64,000 nucleotides of DNA from assembly GCA_016932315.1 (NCBI GenBank), contig JAFGDD010000004.1:35457-99456 (forward strand). Reading direction: 5' to 3'. The position numbers and the translations under genes are program-made. This document shows positions 1,890 through 58,473 of this stretch, in pieces (position 1 is the stretch's first letter; each line of letters begins with the position of its first letter). The stretch comes from Candidatus Woesearchaeota archaeon (lineage in GTDB: Archaea; Nanobdellota; Nanobdellia; Woesearchaeales; SM23-78). The notes under the pieces are model-generated. The model was not told the origin of the DNA, made no database searches, and saw only the letters and a program-made list of their open reading frames with translations.

Positions 1890-2720
1890 ATGGGCAGCTG
1901 GTCAAAAGGTATTTTTGGAAAAGAGTACATAGGAAGAACCGGGATTATCGTTGCCGGGACAATCAGCCCGTATTATGAAAAAAATATTCTTAAAATGTTC
2001 GAGAAAGTGCTTGATAAAAAAGACCAGGTTTATCATGCCTATGTTGTAAAAAAAGGAAAGAATATTCACCCGTTGGTTTTTAATGTATTAGGCGCGCCTG
2101 CTGCTATTGACTGCGTCAGCATACTTCATGACGGCGGATGCAGAAATCTTGTTTTCGTAGGATTCGCCTATGGATTCAAGAATAAAGTTGGTGACGCAGT
2201 GGTTCCTAATAAATCATATCATTTTGACGGAATTTATCATGCATTGAAGATAGATAAGGATTTTAGCCTGCCGGATTATGAGTTGAATGAAAAGCTTAAG
2301 CAAATTCTAAGAAAGGAAAAAAATGATTTTTTTGAAGGCATAAATATAAGTGTGCCCTCTGTCACGCTTCAGCCAAAACACAAAAATAAGGATTATGAAA
2401 GAATAAAACCCACTACCTTGGAAATGGAGTATGCTGCTTTTCTTTCGTGGACCCGAGAAATTGGGATTAGAAGCGCAGGGGTCATGATTATCAGCGACAC
2501 CAAGAATGACAGTATTGGCGACGAAGGCAGAAGAAAAATTCGAAGGGAGAAAAGGGAAAGCGTTATTGCATCCATTGTAAAGAACATTTCTGATTTTGAT
2601 TTAAAACCTCTTAAAAACTCAGAGAAATTTAGTTTGGACCAATGCCTTGCAGAAATAGTTGAAATTGATGATAAAACACTAAGCATTTACAGAAGGAATG
2701 ATAAAAAATTAAAATCCTAG
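1890..2720 (+). CDS. Nucleoside phosphorylase family protein (PNP/UDP phosphorylase family 1, DeoD-like)
   Basis: GAPAAIDCVSILHDGGCRNLVFVGFAYG and LEMEYAAFLSWTREIGIRSAGVMIISD align by eye to the DeoD motifs GIPS..I...EL...G...IRVGSCGA and VEMEAAG...A...G.....C.VSD. Confidence 0.6.
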   Translation: MGSWSKGIFGKEYIGRTGIIVAGTISPYYEKNILKMFEKVLDKKDQVYHAYVVKKGKNIHPLVFNVLGAPAAIDCVSILHDGGCRNLVFVGFAYGFKNKVGDAVVPNKSYHFDGIYHALKIDKDFSLPDYELNEKLKQILRKEKNDFFEGINISVPSVTLQPKHKNKDYERIKPTTLEMEYAAFLSWTREIGIRSAGVMIISDTKNDSIGDEGRRKIRREKRESVIASIVKNISDFDLKPLKNSEKFSLDQCLAEIVEIDDKTLSIYRRNDKKLKS

Positions 2721-3932
2721 CGCCTCGTCAGCTTCCTTTTTCATCCTGGCCTCGTACTCGTACTTCTTTTCTCCTTCTTTCTGCTCCTCGCTCATTAATT
2801 GGATGAGTTTTTTTATTGTGCACTCTTCTTTTTCTGAAAGGAATACGGGTGCTCTGCCAAGGTGCTTCTTGATAAGCTCTTCTTCCAGCTGCTCTGCTGA
2901 GCCAGAGCTGACATTCACTTCCTCCATTTCCTTTGATGAAAGCTGGGATGTGTTTCTCATGACAAAATATGTTGACTTGTTGTATAATTCCCTAAAAAAA
3001 TTCTTGAAATCAATATCGCTAGGCTTGCCACTCTTAAGCTTTCCGCCGACTTTTAAGAGAACAATGGTGTGGTTGAATTCTTTCTGTTGAATCTTTGCTT
3101 CAAGCTCATGGTTTATTACTTCAGGCGTCTTGTTGTCTGCGCTTACCTCAATCTTGTAGGTGTTCTTGATATTAAGAGGTATAAATTCTAATTTGTTCTT
3201 GCCCGTCTGGTTTGTATCATCATAAACATAGAATCCTCCTCTGCCAAGCTTCCATAACTCTGCAAAATTAGCAGGGAACACAGGACCAGGATAGACGAGG
3301 TTATGATAATCCTCAATATCCTTGTGCTCTACAATATGAACGTGTCCGCCTGCGTAATAATCAAATCCTCTGGGCATCTCTGACGCAGGCATTGACTCCA
3401 TCTTCTCCATTTCTTCTGGCTTAAGCTCATCAAGCGATGTGTGGAACATGAAAATCTTGAAACCCTGCTCTTCTTCCAAAGGCTTGACGTCAAGAAGCTC
3501 AAAATCCTTTTTCTCCAAGCTACCCCTTTTTCCTCTCACACCTGTAATCTTTGCTCCTGTCTTCTTATCAACAGTAAACATTAGCCTGAGCTTGTTGCCA
3601 ATAACCTCACCCTGCATGACATTCACGAGAAGCTCTGCTTCTTCGAGAACATCGATAATAGTCCTCCCGCCAGGGCTATAGTCATGGCTTCCCGGAACAA
3701 CATAAACAGGGATGTTCTGCTTCCTCAGCCTCTTAAGCAATCCTACTGTCTGCTTCAAATGCTCCAAAGAAGGCATTGGTGTGTTGAACAAATCGCCGGC
3801 AATCAGGACAAAATCAACATTCTTCTCAAGAATCATGTGGATGGCGCGCCTAAAAGCCTCAAGGTTCATGTTCTTAAGCGCAGGATCCCTCCATGCTCCA
3901 ATGTGCACGTCTGCCAAGTGGGCGAATCTCAT
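2709..3932 (-). CDS. mre11: Mre11-like metallophosphoesterase nuclease (DNA double-strand-break repair family)
   Basis: Likely start at internal ATG (MRFAHLADVHIGAW...). Phosphoesterase motifs I (ADVH), II (GDLFN), III (GSHD, Ser in place of the usual Asn) and V/VI (GGHVHIV) are present. Size is about 407 aa. The ORF track extends 31 codons upstream. Confidence 0.65.
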   Translation of the reverse strand: MRFAHLADVHIGAWRDPALKNMNLEAFRRAIHMILEKNVDFVLIAGDLFNTPMPSLEHLKQTVGLLKRLRKQNIPVYVVPGSHDYSPGGRTIIDVLEEAELLVNVMQGEVIGNKLRLMFTVDKKTGAKITGVRGKRGSLEKKDFELLDVKPLEEEQGFKIFMFHTSLDELKPEEMEKMESMPASEMPRGFDYYAGGHVHIVEHKDIEDYHNLVYPGPVFPANFAELWKLGRGGFYVYDDTNQTGKNKLEFIPLNIKNTYKIEVSADNKTPEVINHELEAKIQQKEFNHTIVLLKVGGKLKSGKPSDIDFKNFFRELYNKSTYFVMRNTSQLSSKEMEEVNVSSGSAEQLEEELIKKHLGRAPVFLSEKEECTIKKLIQLMSEEQKEGEKKYEYEARMKKEADEALGF

Positions 3933-48913: not shown

Positions 48914-51900
48914 CTATTCTTCTGGGTTTCTGAGAAGTGTTAGCGTATTCCAAGCGCCTGCTGGCGGATTCTTAAGTGAGACGCTAACAACATTGGCTTG
49001 TGATGATTCGCTAATGTTCAAAAAGCTCAGCTCAGAAACTGAAAATCCTGTGTAGTTGAAAGAGTAGAACCATGCTGGCTGGGCAGAAGCTTTGCAAGCA
49101 TTCTCTCCTACTCCAAATATCTTCTTGTTATTCAGATTGGTTGCATACAGCTTATTAAAGAGCTGAAGCCCCTCTAGATTGCTTTGAAGAGAAGCGGGTT
49201 TTGGGCAAAGCCAGCCCATCCAGCTCAGCCAAGAAGGCAAGCTAGAGCAAACACCATTCCATAATGAAGGAGTTAATTCATTAATTTTTTGATCACTAAA
49301 AACAATCATTTTTGATTTGCTGTCATAATAGAGCTTCAGATAAGCATTATCTACGCACAAAGTAAAGCCGGGCTCGTTCAAACATTCAGGCTTAAAGTTA
49401 AATTTAGCTCCAGGATATGATTGGAGGAAATTTTGCTCAACAGTTGTTATGAAATCAGTGTGATTAGTAGCATTGTAAAACTGCTGATTAATGGTTGTGC
49501 CTATTATTCTTTGACCATTGAGGTTTAAGACACAATAATTATTGGTTTTGCCGGCTGCAAAAGGCAAGTCAATCAGCACATCCTCCTTTGTTCCGCACGT
49601 TAAAGTGAATTTGTCTGTGTTTTTTGTCAGAGAAACGAGTTCCATTGCCAAAAGCTTAGTTCTGCTCGTCCAATTTCCGCTCTGGCAAAGACTGTCTTTA
49701 ATGTATTGGGTGTTATTGATGCATTGCGGGTTGCCATCGACGTTGCCGTTATCAGCGGGATTGCCTGCGATATTATACAAGCATTGCGTGGCATTGGAAC
49801 AGAAGCCAGCATAACAGCCATTAGGCGTCTTCTGACCAGCACCCATTATATTAACCCACATTCCTTGCAAACACTTATAGATTGCGGTCTCATTAACCTT
49901 ATACTGAGCATTATAGGCTAATTGCTCAGCAATACAAGCACCGATCCCGCCGCCAGCAGTCGGATCCCAGCACTGATTAGGCAAGCAACAACTAGCATTT
50001 CTCAAGTTATTATTGCTGGTTACATTCTTGAAATAATCCATCAAAGGCTTCGGGACCTCTGATTTGTGGGATAAGTTCTCATAAGTTTGAGTCCAAGCGC
50101 CACTAACATAAGAGCAATAATAATCCCCCCTAGGGGTGTTTAATATAGTGCAATAATCAGAACGCTCAATCAAAGCTCCTTTTGCAGTTAAACCTCTGCC
50201 TGTTCCGGGGTCTGGCCAATCAGTAACAGCCTTTAGGCATTGCCTGCTCAGACGCTGGCTATAATCGCAGAAATCATTGGCGTGAGTGATAGGAGAGACG
50301 CATTGCCTGCACTCGCTAGGCCTATCTTTATCAGCCTTATAACAGGTAACTCCTACGTATTGGTCTTCTTTACAAACATCGCTACAGAATTCCCTTGCTG
50401 CAGCGCACCATGCATTTTCACAATCCTTATAAGGATTAGCATCGGACGACAATGGCAAGAAGAAATTGCATTTTGAAGCGTCACAACCAGGATTGTCTGG
50501 TTCACAATTATTAATGCATTGAGGCTGGCAACCCCACTTATCTGGTTCACAAGCATAGCTAGAGCAAGCCTCAATAATGCATTCCTTCACACAATTGCTC
50601 ATCTCAGTAGGACCAACAATAGGCTCGTCACGAGGATCTTCCTCGAATGCTGCTCCAGTTATCTCAATTAAGTTATTATTAATATATTCGGGTAATGATG
50701 AGGATTGAGATGAAGAAAAAGTAACAGGATCTAAACCGCAACCATAGAACTTGCCGTTCTGAACATAAACTTCATTATAAGTATAGGCTGTGCCACTGCT
50801 TCCTTTGTAGAGCAAGAAGTTATTGTTAGGCTGGAACTGACCCTTAAAACAGGCACCTGATGTGCTGCCATAATCATTATATGACTCATTACCCCAAGGT
50901 GTAAAATCCTCTTTTTCAGAGCAGCAATAAGTTCCAGTGGCCTTTAAACCGGCTTTGGTACAAGCATTCTGCAAAGTAGGGCCGTCAAGATTAGAACTAA
51001 AAGTCCCATCATCCAAACAATAAAGAGTTTTATTATTCATTACAATATACTGGCCGGGATTAAGTGTTTTAGTCACACTAGAATCCCTGCTTCCAGGAAT
51101 ATCGGTGCATCCCTTAATTCCACAGCAAATGGCAATCTTGGCTCGCGAGGAGTCTAATCCTGGTTTTTTTGTTTGGCTGTAATCAGTATAACATATATAA
51201 TTATGATCACTAACATTGCCCATGATTGAACCATTAGCAATCACGTAGTCTAAAGCGTATAACCCTGCTTGCCAACCATCGTCCTGCTGACCTGGTACGC
51301 AAAGCTGGGCATGAGTTAATCCATCCATCGCGCCATATACATAAATGCCATGAGCATTAGGTGAAGGAGAAATGAGTTTTTTGCCAGGGCAAGGGATAAG
51401 AGCGTCATTCACCACGCTCACATCACGCCCACTTTTGTACTCCTCCCATTCCAGAATTGGCGCCGGGCAAAAAGCACTCGAATCTGTTCCTTTTGTAAAT
51501 TCCATGTTCTTAAAAGACAAGCCTCTGGCTCCTGTACTTATGAGACTTGCAAAACCAAAAGGACTATCGCCAGTACAAACAAGATAACCGCCAAGAGAAG
51601 CAGTATTGAAACGATTACTATCAGTAGTAGCGTGCAAACCACAACCAGGCTCTAAAGCCGCACCCACAACAGAGCCATGAACTCTCACAGAAGCGCCCTG
51701 ATAATAACCAGCAGGGCAAGAGTACTGCCAGCTGCCTGTTGACTTCCAAGTAGTGCTGCCCTCCGAAGCACCACCATAAGCAAGTACTTTTGTAAGAATC
51801 TCAGGATTCCTGTTAGGATCAACTTCAAATAATTTTAAACATCCATCAGTGTCATAATCAACAATGTGGGTAATGTAGTCATCATACTTGTCCTCATCAA

Positions 51901-53506
51901 TGCACTTAACAAATTCGCCGCCCATATTAACTATTGGGAAAGAGTTAAAGCAGCCTGCAGTTTTGAAAACCTCGCCTGATTTAGTCTCATCAGAAGCCAA
52001 GTGCCAGCTTGTTCCATCACAAATCTTAGTGGTATCACAAACAGCTTTGCCATCAGAACGGCATTTATTATTGCCGCAACAACCAACCCCTTCTGTAAAG
52101 GTTCCTCCTGCAGCAGCGCAGGCAATAGGGTTAGTGTCAACAGCATCATAAGAGAAAGCAGGAGTATAACCAGCAGCCTCAATATTGGCCTTGCAACCAG
52201 TAGCAGGATCACAAGTTACATCATAAGGCTGATAATAAGGATTAGTGTTAGAATGCAAGTCCCTATAAGCTTTTGCAGAATCAGCAGCGCCATCATTATT
52301 AATCCCAACACAAACCTTATTCACGCAAAAAGGAGTGTCTGCCTTACAGAATCCTCCTTCTGTTCCAGTAAAGTACTTGTGAGTGCCACCATCAGTAAAT
52401 CCACAGCCACCGCAATTAAAAGGGTCAATGGTCTTATCAACACAAGTATTTCCAAAGGTTACCGTCCCCACGCCCTCAATGGCAACCGCAGAAGTGGTTG
52501 AAACTGTGACTTCTTGATTAGGCAATACATAAGGATAAACAGAGCCATCAGGCATTAAAGGAACAGGGCACCAAGCACAATTGGAAGCAGCTCCTTCTAT
52601 AGTGCAAAGTTCAGGAGTATCACGCAAATTACAAGGAGGCGAGCAAGTATCTGTGTAATTTACACAAAGAGTCACGCCTTTGAAACCATTAATTCCGTCT
52701 TTCAATATTATTGATGAGCTACCAGTATCATAAGTAAATGTTTGTTTAACAAAGCCATCAGGACACTTTAAATCACACATAGGGATGAGTCCCACGAAAG
52801 GGCATGTATCCGATAATAAAGTTACATTATTCACACCTTTATTTCCTGTTTTCGTGCTGCAAAAACGATAACAAATATTGGAATAGCCTATTGATCCTTC
52901 CTCATCCCAACCTGAAACGCCAGAAGGATTACAAGAAGGAGCGTTACAGGTGCCTCCATTAGGATACGGGTTCCAAGTTAATTTTAGGTCCTTCATTTCG
53001 TTCTGATAACCCTTCTTATAACAAATTCGCCATTGATTAACATCATCTGAACTTCCCGCGTCTATCCACCCCTCAGGACAAGAAGTTGTAAACATATGAA
53101 TATCATTAATACAACCAAAAGAAGATGCTGGCGGGGTTTCTGAAGATGGGCAACAGGCATTACAATCTCCATCTGCGACACTAGAGCAAGCTTTTTCTGT
53201 GAATGTTTCGTCTGATTTAGTACAACAAACCATATCTATATTACATACAGGATTACAATTACCCCCTGGATTCCATCCATTTTTAACATCGCAAGCAATT
53301 TGGCATTGTGCTTGCTCATCAGAATAGTAATCACAACACTTTGCACAATCGCCGGAATTATCCAAACAACCGCCACAAACAAAGGAGTTTGTTCCAGAAC
53401 ACGTTCCTAACACTAAATCAATAGATGTTAATAGCAATGCTGATGCAAAAACAAAAAAAAGTAAAGAAAAAAATTTCTTGTTACTATTGAAAATCATGAA
53501 CTCCAC
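48914..53506 (-). CDS. Giant secreted cysteine-rich surface protein (1530 aa)
   Basis: Sec signal (FFSLLFFVFASALLLTSIDLVLG). Well over 100 Cys in irregular spacing and numerous glycosylation sequons. Carries an internal module of about 125 aa homologous to the C-terminus of the 675-aa protein. No TM anchor. Confidence 0.55.
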   Translation of the reverse strand: MEFMIFNSNKKFFSLLFFVFASALLLTSIDLVLGTCSGTNSFVCGGCLDNSGDCAKCCDYYSDEQAQCQIACDVKNGWNPGGNCNPVCNIDMVCCTKSDETFTEKACSSVADGDCNACCPSSETPPASSFGCINDIHMFTTSCPEGWIDAGSSDDVNQWRICYKKGYQNEMKDLKLTWNPYPNGGTCNAPSCNPSGVSGWDEEGSIGYSNICYRFCSTKTGNKGVNNVTLLSDTCPFVGLIPMCDLKCPDGFVKQTFTYDTGSSSIILKDGINGFKGVTLCVNYTDTCSPPCNLRDTPELCTIEGAASNCAWCPVPLMPDGSVYPYVLPNQEVTVSTTSAVAIEGVGTVTFGNTCVDKTIDPFNCGGCGFTDGGTHKYFTGTEGGFCKADTPFCVNKVCVGINNDGAADSAKAYRDLHSNTNPYYQPYDVTCDPATGCKANIEAAGYTPAFSYDAVDTNPIACAAAGGTFTEGVGCCGNNKCRSDGKAVCDTTKICDGTSWHLASDETKSGEVFKTAGCFNSFPIVNMGGEFVKCIDEDKYDDYITHIVDYDTDGCLKLFEVDPNRNPEILTKVLAYGGASEGSTTWKSTGSWQYSCPAGYYQGASVRVHGSVVGAALEPGCGLHATTDSNRFNTASLGGYLVCTGDSPFGFASLISTGARGLSFKNMEFTKGTDSSAFCPAPILEWEEYKSGRDVSVVNDALIPCPGKKLISPSPNAHGIYVYGAMDGLTHAQLCVPGQQDDGWQAGLYALDYVIANGSIMGNVSDHNYICYTDYSQTKKPGLDSSRAKIAICCGIKGCTDIPGSRDSSVTKTLNPGQYIVMNNKTLYCLDDGTFSSNLDGPTLQNACTKAGLKATGTYCCSEKEDFTPWGNESYNDYGSTSGACFKGQFQPNNNFLLYKGSSGTAYTYNEVYVQNGKFYGCGLDPVTFSSSQSSSLPEYINNNLIEITGAAFEEDPRDEPIVGPTEMSNCVKECIIEACSSYACEPDKWGCQPQCINNCEPDNPGCDASKCNFFLPLSSDANPYKDCENAWCAAAREFCSDVCKEDQYVGVTCYKADKDRPSECRQCVSPITHANDFCDYSQRLSRQCLKAVTDWPDPGTGRGLTAKGALIERSDYCTILNTPRGDYYCSYVSGAWTQTYENLSHKSEVPKPLMDYFKNVTSNNNLRNASCCLPNQCWDPTAGGGIGACIAEQLAYNAQYKVNETAIYKCLQGMWVNIMGAGQKTPNGCYAGFCSNATQCLYNIAGNPADNGNVDGNPQCINNTQYIKDSLCQSGNWTSRTKLLAMELVSLTKNTDKFTLTCGTKEDVLIDLPFAAGKTNNYCVLNLNGQRIIGTTINQQFYNATNHTDFITTVEQNFLQSYPGAKFNFKPECLNEPGFTLCVDNAYLKLYYDSKSKMIVFSDQKINELTPSLWNGVCSSLPSWLSWMGWLCPKPASLQSNLEGLQLFNKLYATNLNNKKIFGVGENACKASAQPAWFYSFNYTGFSVSELSFLNISESSQANVVSVSLKNPPAGAWNTLTLLRNPEE

Positions 53507-53589: not shown

Positions 53590-54420
53590 TTATTTAATCA
53601 ATAGATATTTCTTCATTTCATCCTGAATTTCTTCCTCTGAGAATGCTATCAGGGGCATTAATATGAACATATTAATAGGGTGTTGCTTTATGTTGGTGAG
53701 TGTGTCTGAGGTAATGATTGCTTTGCAGTCAAGTTTCTTTGCTATTTCGTCTATTTCAGGAATTTTTTTTATTTTATGAAGAATTAATTTATAAGGGCAA
53801 AATTCTTGTAATAAGGAATAATTTGTGTCTGAAGAAGCCACTAATTCAACTGCGCATCCTCTCCTCATAATCAGGAGCGCTGCTAGGATTGACTTCTCAT
53901 CAGAAACTAACGCTAACACCTTGCCTTCAACGCCCGCGGGCAATCCTCCAAAGCAATTAATGGTTTTTGTGAATAAGAATGCTTCATCATCAATTATTTC
54001 AACACATATATCAAGATCTGGCTTTTCCAAGTCCACTTTCCAGCCTTTCTTCTGCACTATAAATGCTCCTATTTGCTTGTTAAGCTCCAAGGAGGAAGAG
54101 AAGCGTTCTTTGGTTAGTCTTCTGGCACTTATCTTGAAACTGGTGGTTTTCTCGTGGTTTTCAGCTTGTTTTAAGGCTTCTGAACAAATTGCTTTAATCT
54201 CAGCGCTGGTTTTGGTGCAGGGGCTGTAGGAAACATTTCCAAAAACTCTGCGAAAATCAAGCTCATGCTCTGCTTCAACTAATAATCTGCCTGGAAGCTG
54301 TTTTATTCTTGGCTTGAAAGCTGAAAGCTGGCTTCGGATGTTAGTCATGAGCCTTTTCTCAAACTCTGACCTATTCTTGCCTTTCAGTGCAATTTCTGCG
54401 TATCGCACAAGGTAAATCAT
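53590..54420 (-). CDS. ThiI-like THUMP-domain protein with degenerate PP-loop
   Basis: The N-terminus (YLVRYAEIALKGKNRSEFEKRL) matches the ThiI ferredoxin-like/THUMP region. Where ThiI has SGGIDS, this protein has LALVSDEKS. The protein is about 110 aa shorter than ThiI. Confidence 0.5.
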   Translation of the reverse strand: MIYLVRYAEIALKGKNRSEFEKRLMTNIRSQLSAFKPRIKQLPGRLLVEAEHELDFRRVFGNVSYSPCTKTSAEIKAICSEALKQAENHEKTTSFKISARRLTKERFSSSLELNKQIGAFIVQKKGWKVDLEKPDLDICVEIIDDEAFLFTKTINCFGGLPAGVEGKVLALVSDEKSILAALLIMRRGCAVELVASSDTNYSLLQEFCPYKLILHKIKKIPEIDEIAKKLDCKAIITSDTLTNIKQHPINMFILMPLIAFSEEEIQDEMKKYLLIK

Positions 54421-54510
54421 TTTTCAAAGCAAGAAAAAAAATTGTGTTTATTAATTTATTTAAAATTTTTAACAAAAAAAACTAGAGAGCTTCAAAAATT
54501 GAAATAAAGC

Positions 54511-54562
54511 CCGTTATAACGTGTTATAACGCATTATAACGCCCGTTATAACGTGTTATAAT
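54511..54562. repeat. Tandem array (5 copies, 10/10/12/10-bp phasing) of the palindromic octamer GTTATAAC
   Basis: GTTATAAC at 54513, 54523 and 54545. One-mismatch copies ATTATAAC at 54533 and GTTATAAT at 54555. Lies about 90-140 bp upstream of the ThiI-like start and 14 bp past the stop of the wHTH regulator gene. Confidence 0.8.
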
Positions 54563-54575
54563 GTTTAGAATTTTT

Positions 54576-55256
54576 TTAGAGGTTATAAAGTTTTTTAACT
54601 TTGGCTTTGTGTCTGAGGCTAAAAAGTTTAACGCCGTTTGGAAGAGTGCTTTCATCAATAAAACCTTTGAATTTGAGCTGGTTCATATAGACGCGAATAG
54701 TGCTCAAAGTCTTTCCAGTGCGTTCTGCTATCTGATTATATGACAAAGGGTTTTCTGCATTGAATAAAACCCCTACAAGCCATTTCTCTGGATTAGAGAG
54801 GGTATCATAAAAAGGCTCAGGCATTATGGCTTTAACATTATTAACATTAGAAATATTAGTTTCCTTGGGTTTTTGCCTTGTTTCATTCATAAAAACCTCG
54901 ACTTCCTTTAAAATCTCTTTTTTTATGGTCTGAGCATCCTTAATGTTCTTGGTATATGCCTCTTTGAAGAGGTTGAGAGAGGCTGTACTTAAAGCTTCAA
55001 ACTCTTCATCCAGTTTCTTCTCTAAAACCTTCAGGTCCTGATCCAACCGTCTAATTGAACCATCAAAGTGTTTTATCCAGTCAGCAATTCTTTGGTGATT
55101 AAGAAAAGTTGTCTGCTTAAAACCATGATGATTTATGTAAAGCTCTTCCAAAAGCTTTTTTTGCGACGAGAAATCTTCCCTTATCTTGGCAAATGCATCT
55201 GTTAGTCCTGAGTTCATCTGCTCGAGCCTAATTCTCTTTCTAATCCAACCCAACAT
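54576..55256 (-). CDS. Coiled-coil / winged-helix DNA-binding protein (putative transcription regulator)
   Basis: Helical N-terminal two-thirds. C-terminal HTH (SYNQIAERTGKTLSTIRVYMNQLKFKGFID). Confidence 0.45.
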   Translation of the reverse strand: MLGWIRKRIRLEQMNSGLTDAFAKIREDFSSQKKLLEELYINHHGFKQTTFLNHQRIADWIKHFDGSIRRLDQDLKVLEKKLDEEFEALSTASLNLFKEAYTKNIKDAQTIKKEILKEVEVFMNETRQKPKETNISNVNNVKAIMPEPFYDTLSNPEKWLVGVLFNAENPLSYNQIAERTGKTLSTIRVYMNQLKFKGFIDESTLPNGVKLFSLRHKAKVKKLYNL

Positions 55257-55514
55257 CCTCTTTTCCTCGTTTCCTGTTTTATTTTTTTCTTTGTGTATTT
55301 ATAAATTTTTTTAAGTCACAAAAACTACTCAAACAAAAAAAACAAGCAAAAAAAAGGTTAAAATGAGCTTTTCTCCAGTGGAAATGATGGGGTGTGCCGT
55401 GAATTAAGACTTTTCAATCTTGGTTCAACACGTTCAGAAGCCTTAAAAAAAAGGTTTTCAAAGGAAATCAAGGAGGCTTATGTTCTGAAACATAATCTTT
55501 GCAGGATAAAAGCA

Positions 55515-55560
55515 TTTATAAATAGCTTATAATTCCGTCCTTTATAAATGGTTTATAAAG
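55515..55560 (+). promoter_or_regulatory. Cluster of four TATA-like boxes upstream of tbp
   Basis: TTTATAAAT (55515), CTTATAATT (55527), TTTATAAAT (55541) and TTTATAAAG (55552). The last is about 35 nt upstream of the ATG, which is preceded by a GGGGGA Shine-Dalgarno sequence. Confidence 0.5.
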
Positions 55561-55591
55561 TTCTCGACTAAGAGGACAAAGGGGGATTCAT

Positions 55592-56299
55592 ATGGCAAAG
55601 AAGAAAGTAAAAGCAACGAAGAAAAAAATTCTCAAGAAAACAATAAAGAAAAAAATTAAGACGGCGCCTAGAATAAAAAAAGTAAAGAAAATTAGGGACG
55701 CCAAGAAGAAAAAGCTTGTAAGTAAGGCTATTAAAACTAGCCCTGAGAAATATGCTGATGCTGGCCCGAGAGATATTCGTGTAGTTAATATTGTTGTATC
55801 AACTAGTTTGGAACATGATATCCCTTTAGAAAAAATGGCTGCTACTCTAAGCAATACTGAATACAACCCAGAACAATTCCCTGGTTTGGTTATCAGGATT
55901 AAGGATCCTAAGACCTCTGCATTAATCTTTAGCTCTGGCAAGGTGGTTTGCACAGGAGCTAGGAGCATGGAAAAAGTGCATGAGAGCATTGAGAGAATTA
56001 TTGAAAGCCTGAAGAAAATAGGAATAAAGATTACTATTACACCAAAAATTAATATTCAAAATATTGTGGCGAGCGGCAACATAGGCATGGACCTGAACCT
56101 TAATGTTTTAGCCATGAAACTTGACAATACAGAGTATGAGCCAGAACAATTTCCGGGCTTAGTTTACAAACTAATGGAAGCCAAGGCAACATTCTTGTTG
56201 TTCAGCAACGGAAAGGTAGTATGCACAGGCACCAAGTCAGAGCAAGAAGTGCATGCTGCTCTGGATAAACTAGTGGAAACCCTGAAAGCAGTAAAATAA
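55592..56299 (+). CDS. tbp: TATA-box binding protein with 58-aa Lys-rich N-terminal extension
   Basis: Two direct repeats of the TBP fold (NIVVSTSLEHDIPLEKMA..EYNPEQFPGLVIRI and NIVASGNIGMDLNLNVLA..EYEPEQFPGLVYKL). The N-terminal residues MAKKKVKATKKKILKKTIKKKIK... are about 45% Lys. Confidence 0.9.
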   Translation: MAKKKVKATKKKILKKTIKKKIKTAPRIKKVKKIRDAKKKKLVSKAIKTSPEKYADAGPRDIRVVNIVVSTSLEHDIPLEKMAATLSNTEYNPEQFPGLVIRIKDPKTSALIFSSGKVVCTGARSMEKVHESIERIIESLKKIGIKITITPKINIQNIVASGNIGMDLNLNVLAMKLDNTEYEPEQFPGLVYKLMEAKATFLLFSNGKVVCTGTKSEQEVHAALDKLVETLKAVK

Positions 56300-56457: not shown

Positions 56458-58473
56458 TTGGAGGTTTCAGAACAAATAAACCTGTTTTACAAGCTTATAG
56501 AATCAGAGTACTATAAGGAACTTATCAAGCAGGTGAGTAAAGGGCAAAAATTCTTGAAAATAAACTTTAATGCTTTATCAAAATATAGCCCTGAGCTTGC
56601 AGAAATGCTTCTTGAAGAGCCAGAAGAAGTGATAAAAGCAGCTGAATTAGCCATTGACAGCTTTGACATAGAAGGAGATACAAAAAACTTTAAGGTCAGG
56701 TTCTTTAACCTCCCTAAGTCCCAAAAAATTCAGATCCGCAATATCAGAAGCCAACACATTGGCAAATTCCTTGAAATACAAGGCTTGGTCAGACAAAAAA
56801 GTGATGTCAGACCTCAAGTAACGAGTGCCAGGTTTGAATGCCCTAGCTGCGGCAACATAATTAATGTTCTTCAACTAGACACTGCGTTTCGTGAACCCAG
56901 CAGGTGCAGTTGCGGAAGGCGTGGCAAGTTCAAGCTCATATCAAAAGAACTTGTTGATGCCCAAAAAATAGTTTTAGAAGAAGCACCTGAAGATTTAGAA
57001 GGAGGGGAACAACCTAAGCGACTAAGTGTTTTCTTAAAAAGCGATTTGGTAAGCCCTATAAGCGACAAGAGGACTAACCCTGGAAGCAAAATCCTGGTGA
57101 GCGGCATTATAAAGGAGATTTCTCTTGAAGAAAGAGGAATAAAAACAACCAGGTATGATTTGTTCAGCGATGCCAACTATGTGGAGCCAATTCAAGAAGA
57201 CTTCTATGAGATAACCATAACTGAAGAAGAAGAAGAAAGGATTAAAGAGCTTGCAGATGACAAAAGGGTTTTTGAAAAACTTACTGCTGTGCTGGCACCA
57301 AGCATTTACGGCCATGAAAAAGTCAAAGAAGCCATTCTGCTCCAGATGTTTGGCGGCGTAGTAAAAAAAAGAAGTAAAGGAGACATCACAAGAGGTGACA
57401 TTCACATACTCTTAGTTGGCGACCCTGGCAGTGGAAAATCTCAGTTATTAAAGAGAGTGAGCGAGGTTGCACCAAAGAGCAGGTATGTGAGCGGAAAAGG
57501 AGCCACAGGAGCCGGCCTCACAGCAACTGTTGTAAAAGACGAATTCATAAGAGGGTGGGCTTTAGAAGCAGGAGCTCTAGTTCTAACAAACAAAGGCATT
57601 TGCTGCATAGACGAGTTAGACAAGATGACGCCTGAAGACCAGAGCGCAATGCACGAAGGACTAGAGCAACAAACCATTACTATCAGCAAAGCCAATATCC
57701 AAGCAACCTTAAGGGCAGAAACCACTGTACTTGCAGCAGCCAACCCTAAGTTTGGTAGATTTGACCCTTTTGAACTGATTGCAAAACAAATAGAAATTCC
57801 AACAACCCTTCTGACTCGTTTTGACCTTATATTCCCTGTTCGCGACTTGCCTAACAAGGAAAAAGATGAGAAGATGGCTGATTTCATCCTTAAACTTCAC
57901 CAAAGCGCAGAAAAAAAAGAAACTCCCATACCTGATGATGTCATAAAAAAATATCTTTCCTATGCAAGAAGAAACATTACTCCTAAACTTACTGATGCTG
58001 CTCTTAAGGAAATCAAGGACTTCTTCGTAAGCATGCGAAATGCCAGTGAAACAGATGAGGCCATAAAGACCATACCCATCACTCCTAGACAGCTAGAAGC
58101 ACTTGTCAGATTAAGTGAGGCGAGCGCGCGAGCAGAGCTGCGAGATAAGGTAATAAAAAAGGATGCTCAACGAGCCATCGAACTAGTCCATTATTGCTTG
58201 TCACAGATAGGGTTTGATCCTGCAACAGGCAAGATTGATATAGATACTTTAACTACAGGTATTAGTGCCTCACAGAGAAGTGAAATCAGCGTGATTAGAG
58301 AACTGGTAAATGAGCTTGAGAAAGTGCTCGGAAAGGAAATACCGATTGAGGATGTGCTAAGAGAAGCAGAGATTAGAGGCATTCAAAAAGATAAAGCAGA
58401 AGAGATTATTGAGAAGTTAAAGAGAACTGGTGACTTATTCAGCCCCAGGCACGGAACCATATCTAAAATCTAG
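56458..58473 (+). CDS. mcm: MCM replicative helicase
   Basis: C4 zinc finger (CPSCGN...CSCG), Walker A GDPGSGKSQLL, Walker B CCIDELDKM, arginine finger SRFDLIF and C-terminal winged helix. 671 aa with no intein. Confidence 0.9.
   Translation: MEVSEQINLFYKLIESEYYKELIKQVSKGQKFLKINFNALSKYSPELAEMLLEEPEEVIKAAELAIDSFDIEGDTKNFKVRFFNLPKSQKIQIRNIRSQHIGKFLEIQGLVRQKSDVRPQVTSARFECPSCGNIINVLQLDTAFREPSRCSCGRRGKFKLISKELVDAQKIVLEEAPEDLEGGEQPKRLSVFLKSDLVSPISDKRTNPGSKILVSGIIKEISLEERGIKTTRYDLFSDANYVEPIQEDFYEITITEEEEERIKELADDKRVFEKLTAVLAPSIYGHEKVKEAILLQMFGGVVKKRSKGDITRGDIHILLVGDPGSGKSQLLKRVSEVAPKSRYVSGKGATGAGLTATVVKDEFIRGWALEAGALVLTNKGICCIDELDKMTPEDQSAMHEGLEQQTITISKANIQATLRAETTVLAAANPKFGRFDPFELIAKQIEIPTTLLTRFDLIFPVRDLPNKEKDEKMADFILKLHQSAEKKETPIPDDVIKKYLSYARRNITPKLTDAALKEIKDFFVSMRNASETDEAIKTIPITPRQLEALVRLSEASARAELRDKVIKKDAQRAIELVHYCLSQIGFDPATGKIDIDTLTTGISASQRSEISVIRELVNELEKVLGKEIPIEDVLREAEIRGIQKDKAEEIIEKLKRTGDLFSPRHGTISKI

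Follow-up and report, generated by a model that had tools for sequence, protein, structure and literature searches.

Phased palindrome arrays behind the gene of a coiled-coil winged-helix protein suggest an undescribed protein-site module beside a candidate replication origin in Woesearchaeota

Introduction

Loci in which repeated DNA sites adjoin the gene of the protein that recognises them are otherwise known from the copy control and partition of plasmids. Iterons flank the initiator gene in plasmids P1 (incC - repA - incA) and F (ori2 - repE - incC), and plasmid centromeres lie next to the gene of their binding protein, with sopC after sopB in F, parS after parB in P1, parC with ParR in R1 and pSK41, and tubC with TubR in pBtoxis. 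Here we describe an array of five 10-bp palindromic units lying directly behind the gene of a 226-aa protein with a long N-terminal helix and a C-terminal winged helix-turn-helix (wHTH) domain. The array is located in a 64,000-nucleotide stretch of a metagenome-assembled Candidatus Woesearchaeota archaeon genome (GenBank assembly GCA_016932315.1, contig JAFGDD010000004.1, positions 35,457 to 99,456), which we refer to in its entirety as the window. Our committed best explanation is that the array is a dedicated cis-acting site of the coiled-coil wHTH protein encoded immediately upstream of it, and we consider this likely. The comparative evidence from sequence suggests that the phased cognate repeat array and the DNA-binding protein gene together constitute a previously undescribed module, and a literature search found no paper containing the array motif or describing the module.

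The organism belongs to the DPANN archaea, an uncultivated group with genomes of ~1 Mb. To our knowledge, nothing has been established experimentally about the start, control or segregation of chromosome replication in DPANN archaea. Among archaeal origin-associated factors of the kind considered here, we know only of UBP and its motif ucm. UBP is a 111-aa Sulfolobus protein whose 11-bp ucm motif occurs between the origin recognition boxes (ORBs) at oriC1 and at hundreds of other genomic sites (PMC12141716). The UBP/ucm pair is the nearest archaeal precedent for an origin-accessory sequence-specific protein. Like UBP, the wHTH protein would be an archaeal, sequence-specific DNA-binding protein that is not an initiator and has its site in or beside an ORB origin, the binding being presumed in our case. 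Unlike the unrelated UBP, which has a single motif, it is associated with a phased multi-unit array tied to its own gene.

The plasmid centromeres share with this locus the arrangement of short phased repeats adjoining the gene of a small DNA-binding protein that coats them cooperatively on one face, although here the coating is presumed. TubR is also a wHTH protein, and the array lies 3' of the gene as it does in sopB-sopC. Phased repeats beside the gene of the presumed binder are found here as in the partition cassettes ParABS, ParMRC, TubZRC and the archaeal SegAB and AspA-ParBA, but the protein is neither ribbon-helix-helix nor ParB-like and none of the loci has a ParA/SegA, ParM or TubZ gene next to the module. 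The resemblance to Rep, ParB, ParR and TubR systems would therefore be one of a possible way of working, not of family membership. MarR, ArsR and Lrs14 regulators have the same DNA-binding fold and recognise palindromic sites with half-sites one helical turn apart. Dimerisation in our protein, by contrast, would use a helix of ~125 residues N-terminal to the wHTH, and instead of a single operator over the promoter there is an array of 4-10 units 3' of the gene. Archaeal ORB and mini-ORB elements are likewise repeated at or near origins, but they are built on a TTCCAGTGGAAA-type dyad, with or without a G-string, whereas the array units are TTATAA-based.

Results

An array of phased palindromes

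The array in the window reads cc-CGTTATAACG-TGTTATAACG-CATTATAACG-cc-CGTTATAACG-TGTTATAATG, its units following the general form C-R-TTATAA-Y-G (Table 1). The consensus unit returned by Tandem Repeats Finder is CGTTATAACG, a 10-bp palindrome. An initial annotation of this DNA had reported five copies of the octamer GTTATAAC, three perfect and two with one mismatch, at start-to-start spacings of 10, 10, 12 and 10 bp, and direct reading bore this out: the octamers start at 54513, 54523, 54533, 54545 and 54555, and in the direction of the wHTH gene the spacings run 10, 12, 10, 10. The position given for the array, between the wHTH gene and a ThiI-like gene, was also correct, its end being 12 bp past the wHTH stop codon and its start 91 bp ahead of the ThiI-like ATG.

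Exact copies of GTTATAAC number four in the 64 kb, compared with 0.58 expected, and none of 100 shuffles reached four; three of the four copies fall inside the array. When up to one mismatch is allowed there are 22 occurrences against 20.3 expected, and the octamer itself is not enriched. The signal is consequently the clustering and not the word. Phased pairs of the 10-bp units were found at a single place in the window and in 0 of 100 Markov shuffles, and the array is the only such cluster in the 64 kb. The G+C content of the window is ~40%, so this is not extremely AT-rich DNA. A sixth near-match at 54582-54589 was rejected as a member of the array; it lies within the wHTH coding sequence (LYN codons) and 27 bp out of register, and it is not conserved.

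Linkage of gene and array across relatives

Related loci were assembled from genome and metagenome collections (25 loci), with further ones added by exact look-up. Linkage was counted in loci with a readable 3' flank; the homologues P0056, P0064 and P0049 are known by gene order only. An array of 4-10 CRTTATAAYG units is present 3' of the wHTH stop codon in all 24 non-redundant loci of this kind, in which protein identity to the window homologue extends from 87% down to about 31%. Conservation in relatives, which the initial annotation had named as a check, is thus found together with the same geometry. The family-wide array consensus is CATTATAATG, and the GTTATAAC of the window is a local variant of it. 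Among 106 units the flanking C is kept in 85% and the flanking G in 92% and the bases between units are variable, while the TTATAA core is invariant in the logo by construction of the search. Across the 249 kb made up by the window and the non-redundant loci, phased unit pairs are confined to the flanks of the wHTH gene.

Spacing is kept while the linker bases vary. Most loci have spacings of 10, 12, 10 or 10, 12, 10, 10 in the gene direction, and the others have 10, 12, 21, 21 or mixtures of 9 and 12 bp. Helical phasing of the units on one face, as first proposed for the window, holds for the 24 arrays together: the best-fit period is 10.5 bp, with a mean resultant of 0.889, falling to 0.75 at 10.0 bp and 0.79 at 11.0 bp. 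Five-unit arrays cover exactly 42 bp across four intervals, a mean spacing of 10.5 bp, and the 2-bp G/C-rich insert can therefore be understood as a phase correction that places the units on one face of B-DNA. An exact 42-bp core is present in 15 loci, with CC, GG, CG, GC, GT or CT as the central dinucleotide. Array and wHTH stop codon are 1-21 bp apart in 16 of 21 loci.

The linkage is found in four unrelated neighbourhoods, which are TBP/MCM/ORB as in the window, NFACT with AAA_18 (L031), AAA_18 with PGM (L032) and ThyX with CCG (L035). The homologues in the last three loci (P0065, P0066 and P0071, respectively) are only 31-32% identical and lie away from TBP and MCM, and their N-terminal halves are strongly diverged. 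The 0.7-0.9 kb of non-coding DNA behind each of their genes nevertheless contains CATTATAATG-type arrays, with a 10, 12, 10 core in L031. Wherever a locus that was read has a TTATAA-type array, its homologue keeps both the recognition helix T[IV]RV[YN]MN.LK and the wing PNG.K.F.

The non-coding stretches 3' of these three homologues (L031 5766-6701, L032 2420-3339, L035 3748-4452) contain several motif clusters each. Spacers of such length are unusual, DPANN genomes being otherwise compact, and those of L031 and L032 are 75-81% A+T. The L031 spacer repeats a wHTH promoter-like element, ATCAAATTTTACA, and an inverted repeat, TTTTTCCACCAA/TTGGTGGAAAAA, adjoins the largest array of L032. Some neighbours are common to distant modules, such as NFACT_N (L031 and L037), an AAA_18 kinase-like protein (L031 and L032) and a 170-200-aa protein starting 'MFVRTK...RNxWTKKG' (L032 and L037). 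Relative to AAA_18, the orientation of the unit of wHTH gene and spacer is inverted between L031 and L032.

A paralogue with another helix and another repeat

The distant paralogue P0137 aligns with the family over its full length, but its helix is different (TVKNRLYRIRK; Pfam Sigma70_r4_2). Directly 3' of its gene, in L037 and L038, there is a 180-bp spacer that extends up to a convergent gene and is filled by ~10-12 copies of TGTGACAC/GTGTCACA, including the 16-bp palindrome TGTGACACGTGTCACA (L037 3707-3885, L038 868-1045). All 24 matches to GTGACAC/GTGTCAC in the 6.7-kb L037 locus, one mismatch being allowed, sit in that spacer, and no copies of TGTGACAC/GTGTCACA were found elsewhere in that locus. 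The P0137 array being GTGACAC, TATA-likeness is not the conserved property of these arrays. The change of helix goes together with a change of repeat, which is the strongest computational evidence here that each protein would bind the array behind its own gene. Of the proposal in the initial annotation that the adjacent regulator binds the array, the comparative part stands, by co-occurrence, by the conserved recognition helix and by the joint change of helix and repeat in the paralogue, and the binding itself is a prediction that we consider probably correct.

The coiled-coil wHTH protein

The 226-aa protein is identical to NCBI JW756_01500. It consists of a long N-terminal helix (residues 2-127, a presumed coiled coil), a disordered linker of N-V-x repeats (128-145) and the C-terminal wHTH domain (150-226), and the AlphaFold2 model, with a predicted local distance difference test score of 85, contains one wHTH and the long helix. 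Foldseek relates the C-terminal domain to wHTH domains of the MarR/ArsR/Lrs14 type with E about 1e-4. The 27 matches in the PDB at E <=1e-3 are all MarR, ArsR or Lrs14-like wHTH regulators or uncharacterised putative DNA-binding proteins, and those confined to the C-terminal domain superimpose with root-mean-square deviations of 1.6-3.3 A over 66-84 aligned columns. The Pfam match to HTH_24 is marginal (22.3 bits, cut-off 21.9). No Pfam match of the protein to MarR, HTH_5, HTH_20 or Rep was obtained, its NCBIfam matches are far below their cut-offs, and a sequence search of the PDB gave nothing but coiled-coil noise.

Among 5.8 billion clustered sequences we found ~66 members of the close family; those with an organism name all belong to Woesearchaeota or "Nanoarchaeota"-type DPANN archaea. 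When 1.84 billion representatives were searched with a profile, a wider unnamed superfamily of the same architecture emerged, comprising 184 clusters at E <=1e-3, of which 69 are at <=1e-10. No homologues were found in plasmids, phages or IMG/VR, and a mobile-element origin of the module was rejected. Two viral matches to an 18-mer proved to be unrelated, L029 being in a sigma-70-type bacterial promoter context and L030 an AT-rich repeat.

The N-V-x-N-V-x-N-V sequence of the linker is nearly invariant and is encoded by AAT GTT nnn repeats (codons 132-141, window 54834-54863, minus strand). The Val codons in the motif are GTT in 52 of 52 cases, compared with 46% elsewhere in the wHTH gene, and the Asn codons are AAT in 83%, compared with 63% elsewhere in the gene. 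The DNA of the linker, AATGTTAATAATGTT, is similar to the variant unit GTTAATAATG found within some arrays. The codon bias could indicate a constraint at the DNA level, that is, an internal site, or it could be due to homogenisation of a 9-bp coding repeat.

Units on both sides of the gene in deep-branching members

In four loci whose proteins have 40-53% identity (L027, L028, L033 and L034), the wHTH TATA box is preceded at 20-45 bp by 2-3 extra units, which are spaced by 22, 22, 42 and 10+10 bp. The first upstream unit abuts ORB1 or is within ~10 bp of it in L027, L028 and L033. The presumed sites in these deep members flank their own gene, with a small set at the promoter/origin and a larger set downstream, and the layout resembles that of iterons. 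What would be shared with the iterons of P1 and F is the presence of phased repeats on either side of the gene of the presumed binder, the upstream set in these four loci being at the promoter/origin, as well as the larger downstream set away from the promoter and the 22-bp super-period. The differences are that the units are 10-bp palindromes and not direct repeats of 19-22 bp, that the protein has one wHTH and a long coiled coil in place of the tandem WH1-WH2 Rep fold (Rep_3), and that the locus is chromosomal, has an origin with ORBs for Orc1/Cdc6 and has lost the upstream set in the clade of the window. The three upstream units of L034 accompany the wHTH promoter and not the ORBs; in that locus (2305-3518) TBP is called as two open reading frames (110 and 92 aa), and the ORBs are separated from the wHTH gene by two extra small open reading frames (67 and 129 aa).

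A candidate origin beside the module

Two ORBs are located between the wHTH and TBP genes, ~0.8 kb from the array. With a weight matrix built from 42 ORB instances they are the only matches above 12 bits in the 64 kb, the next best having 9.5 bits. The archaeal ORB consensus is CTTCCAGTGGAAACGAAAGGGGT and that of the Methanomassiliicoccales is GTTCCAGTGGAAATGG-AGGGGTA (PMC4153887, Table 2), and ORB1 and ORB2 agree with the published consensus sequences. Two ORBs in the same orientation and 82-88 bp apart are present in all 22 related loci with DNA across the upstream intergenic region. The proximal one is ~100-140 bp upstream of the wHTH ATG in 20 of these 22, and a T/A-rich tract separates ORB1 from the wHTH promoter. 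Every main-clade locus with DNA that reaches that far keeps the order OB-fold, MCM, TBP, ORBs, wHTH, array.

There is a strand switch at the ORBs (window 25093-59105): the minus strand carries 21 of the 22 genes in the interval 25 kb to 55.26 kb and the plus strand carries TBP, MCM and an OB-fold gene, so that transcription diverges from the ORB point. Next after these three genes come SpoIIM, aIF2-beta and the PolD large subunit. GC skew tracks the gene strand and is not informative, the cumulative skew having merely a local minimum at ~54 kb. Neither orc1/cdc6 nor a ParA-family gene was detected in the window among the open reading frames of >=110 aa that were scanned against Pfam, a set made up of all those taken as genes. 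Judged by motif identity and context, the ORB locus is probably a chromosomal origin.

At 54500-54570 the same matrix yields no hit exceeding 8 bits for the full ORB or 13 bits for the dyad alone, which rules out that the array units are ORBs. No recognisable ORB was found within 3-5 kb of the modules in L031, L032, L035 and L037, and an ORB-like-looking stretch in L032 did not score with the matrix. Since these distant modules have no recognisable ORB, the link between the module and an ORB origin is shown for the clade of the window only.

The TBP promoter (55515-55561, plus strand) contains three or four tandem TATA-like boxes (TTTATAAAT, CTTATAA, TTTATAAAT and TTTATAAAG), three of which are invariant across 11 aligned loci. 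These tandem boxes may represent multi-TATA autoregulation of TBP.

Genes beyond the array

The gene next to the array is ThiI-like in the relatives of the window, a divergent RNase P component 3-like gene in L004, L005, L022, L028 and L034, and a decayed ThiI-like remnant in L021 (5095-5526). Because it is apparently decayed in L021 and absent after the array in several lineages, the ThiI-like gene appears to be a dispensable neighbour. Its product in the window is short (276 aa), and its match to the ThiI model is restricted to the N-terminal ~200 positions and scores well below the cut-off. Array and next ATG are 59-405 bp apart across loci, the separation being 59-147 bp among the 16 loci with the ThiI-like gene next and up to 187 bp in L007. 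In L031 the genes on either side of the arrays are convergent, and the 940-bp spacer that contains the arrays is 81% A+T; a promoter-like repeat within this spacer makes an unannotated transcript possible. The paralogue array in L037 is also between convergent genes. Neighbours of the module, all loci considered, are TBP, MCM, ThiI-like, RNase P component 3-like, NFACT, AAA_18 kinase-like, ThyX and PGM genes. Farther along in the window there is a gene for a 1530-aa cysteine-rich, apparently secreted protein without a Pfam domain (48914-53506, minus strand), divergent copies of which are found downstream in most related loci.

Table 1. Features of the array and its surroundings in the window (window coordinates)
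Feature	Position	Strand	Basis or remark
ThiI-like/THUMP gene	53590-54420	-	276 aa
ThiI-like promoter TATA/B recognition element (BRE) region, AAAAATTAATAAAC-type	54445..54462	-	conserved ~30-40 nt before the ThiI-like ATG in related loci; apart from the array
T-rich run TTTATTTCAATTTTT (minus strand)	54493..54509	-	directly past the array; candidate oligo-T terminator of the wHTH transcript
Array of five 10-bp palindromic units	54512..54563	none	read from sequence; Tandem Repeats Finder
Unit 1, CGTTATAACG	54512-21		
Unit 2, TGTTATAACG	54522-31		
Unit 3, CATTATAACG	54532-41		
CC insert	54542-43		2 bp
Unit 4, CGTTATAACG	54544-53		
Unit 5, TGTTATAATG	54554-63		
Conserved 42-bp core	54522..54563	-	unit pair, 2 G/C-rich bp, unit pair; 22-bp super-period
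Gene of the 226-aa protein, presumed array binder	54576..55256	-	AlphaFold2, Foldseek, Pfam
A/T-rich tract between ORB1 and the wHTH promoter	55318..55366	none	candidate DNA unwinding element, from composition
ORB1, TTTCTCCAGTGGAAATGATGGGGTGTG	55370..55396	+	34.5 bits, ORB weight matrix
ORB2, GGTTTTCAAAGGAAATCAAGGAGGCTT	55453..55479	+	31.3 bits; same orientation as ORB1, 83 bp from it
TBP gene	55592-56299	+	Pfam; transcribed away from the ORBs
MCM helicase gene	56458-58473	+	Pfam; transcribed away from the ORBs

Discussion

One of the features that any explanation of the array has to accommodate is its regularity. The initial annotation allowed that the octamer might occur at similar density throughout an AT-rich genome and reflect chance low-complexity repetition. 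Although the one-mismatch octamer is indeed not enriched across the window, the phased pairs occur at one place only and in none of the shuffles, the DNA is ~40% G+C, and the same geometry recurs in the 24 non-redundant loci, which together make chance scarcely credible. It was also proposed that the array soaks up TBP/TFB, and a cluster of TATA-like boxes could alternatively drive transcription. The TTATAA core is a substring of the local TATA boxes (TTTATAAAT) at the TBP and wHTH promoters, and the TBP gene is ~1 kb away. However, three of the five units in the window have only six A/T base pairs with G/C on either side, the flanking C and G are conserved, the purine tract of a BRE is absent from the array, strict 10.5-bp phasing with a 2-bp insert is foreign to promoters, and the paralogue array has GTGACAC. 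We have accordingly abandoned the TBP sink as very improbable. A hairpin or cruciform, whether formed in the RNA as a 3' structure or terminator for the wHTH transcript or by extrusion of the DNA, deserves equally little weight. The arrays do fold well as single strands (z-scores -3.9 to -6.1), that of L020 is a perfect 42-bp palindrome and a T-run follows the array in many loci. Yet the pairing registers of the predicted folds differ between loci, and the half-to-half complementarity of the 42-bp core at variable positions is 0.617 both within loci and between unrelated loci, with no compensatory change, so that the folding potential is best seen as a by-product of the palindromic units. Most close relatives have the T-run after the array, but L005, L007, L021 and L022 have it in front, which means that the array is not consistently part of a transcript. 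Phasing at 10.5 bp would be meaningless for such a structure, and there was no Rfam match in the window and four loci.

Two further explanations concern what binds the array and what the binding would do. If the array were part of the origin and bound by another factor, such as Orc1/Cdc6, MCM or a nucleoid protein, the wHTH gene would be merely syntenic. Synteny alone has no resolving power in the main clade, where ORBs, wHTH gene and array always occur together. The pairing of gene and array survives where the ORB/TBP/MCM synteny is broken (L031, L032 and L035), the motif changes along with the helix-turn-helix (L037), and the units are unlike ORBs, scoring below 8 bits in the array region, all of which makes another factor improbable. 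A little more probable, but still unlikely, is a classical operator or upstream activating site through which the wHTH protein controls the promoter of the next gene, the ThiI-like gene in the window; the initial annotation had proposed a cooperative operator. This is consistent with the similarity of the domain to MarR/ArsR/Lrs14 transcription factors and with the gene that follows the array being co-directional, as it is in the window and most other loci. The operator reading loses ground because the array does not overlap the conserved TATA region and is 91 bp from the ATG in the window, because its distance to the next ATG is so variable (59-405 bp) and the next gene itself changes (ThiI-like, RNase P component 3-like or the L021 pseudogene), because the array is between convergent genes in L031 and L037, and because it is the distance to the wHTH stop codon that stays constant. 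The anchor of the array is the 3' end of the gene, not a promoter, and in some lineages the array lies between convergent genes; we therefore favour an architectural module of gene and site over a classical operator.

Several observations weigh against a dedicated cis-acting site with an architectural role. The link between protein and site is comparative only, and the co-variation of helix and repeat comes from one divergent lineage, since L037 and L038 are the same species. The next gene is co-directional in nearly all loci, and an upstream-activating role is possible. The scan covered 64 kb of this genome, and further arrays, which would amount to a regulon, may exist elsewhere. Proximity to an origin may be peculiar to the clade of the window, given that L031, L032, L035 and L037 have no ORB within 3-5 kb, and that clade does not have the upstream units. 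Finally, a partner NTPase (ParA, ParM or TubZ) adjacent to the module is missing in every locus.

We present a hypothetical model for the dedicated cis-acting site as follows. The long N-terminal helices would dimerise and set two wHTH domains on neighbouring units 10 bp apart, which corresponds to successive major grooves. Two dimers would fill the 42-bp core (pair, 2 extra bp, pair), and additional units would lengthen the complex. Alternating spacings of 10 and 12 bp, or of 9, 12 and 21 bp, would hold the average at 10.5 bp and the sites on one helix face, an alignment that would favour cooperative, filament-like binding. In the reading that we prefer, the bound array would then form an origin-proximal nucleoprotein complex acting by titration, handcuffing or anchoring in the control of replication or in segregation, and looping autoregulation might be added where upstream units exist. 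Whether the role of the array is something other than promoter regulation is in our judgement a nearly balanced question, with the odds slightly against it, and the narrower proposal that it serves origin control or segregation specifically is tentative and rather unlikely. It is conceivable, at a slightly lower level of confidence still, that the coiled-coil and helix-turn-helix superfamily with its 3' arrays serves DPANN archaea as a system of chromosome maintenance so far unrecognised, either a centromere without a motor or a locus for origin handcuffing/titration comparable in function to P1 incA or F sopC, and that in the clade of the window it has been joined to oriC, as marked by the ORBs and MCM, in a genome region without an orc1/cdc6 gene.

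If the protein is merely an autoregulated transcription factor, it would still define a clean new family of protein and site, although of modest interest. The locus brings together a sharply defined candidate oriC, whose two ORBs next to MCM and TBP are conserved in many lineages, and a lineage-specific DNA-binding protein whose predicted cognate site is unusually clear. The pair is small, a 226-aa protein and 52 bp of DNA, is directly testable in vitro and would provide a handle on archaeal origin-associated factors.

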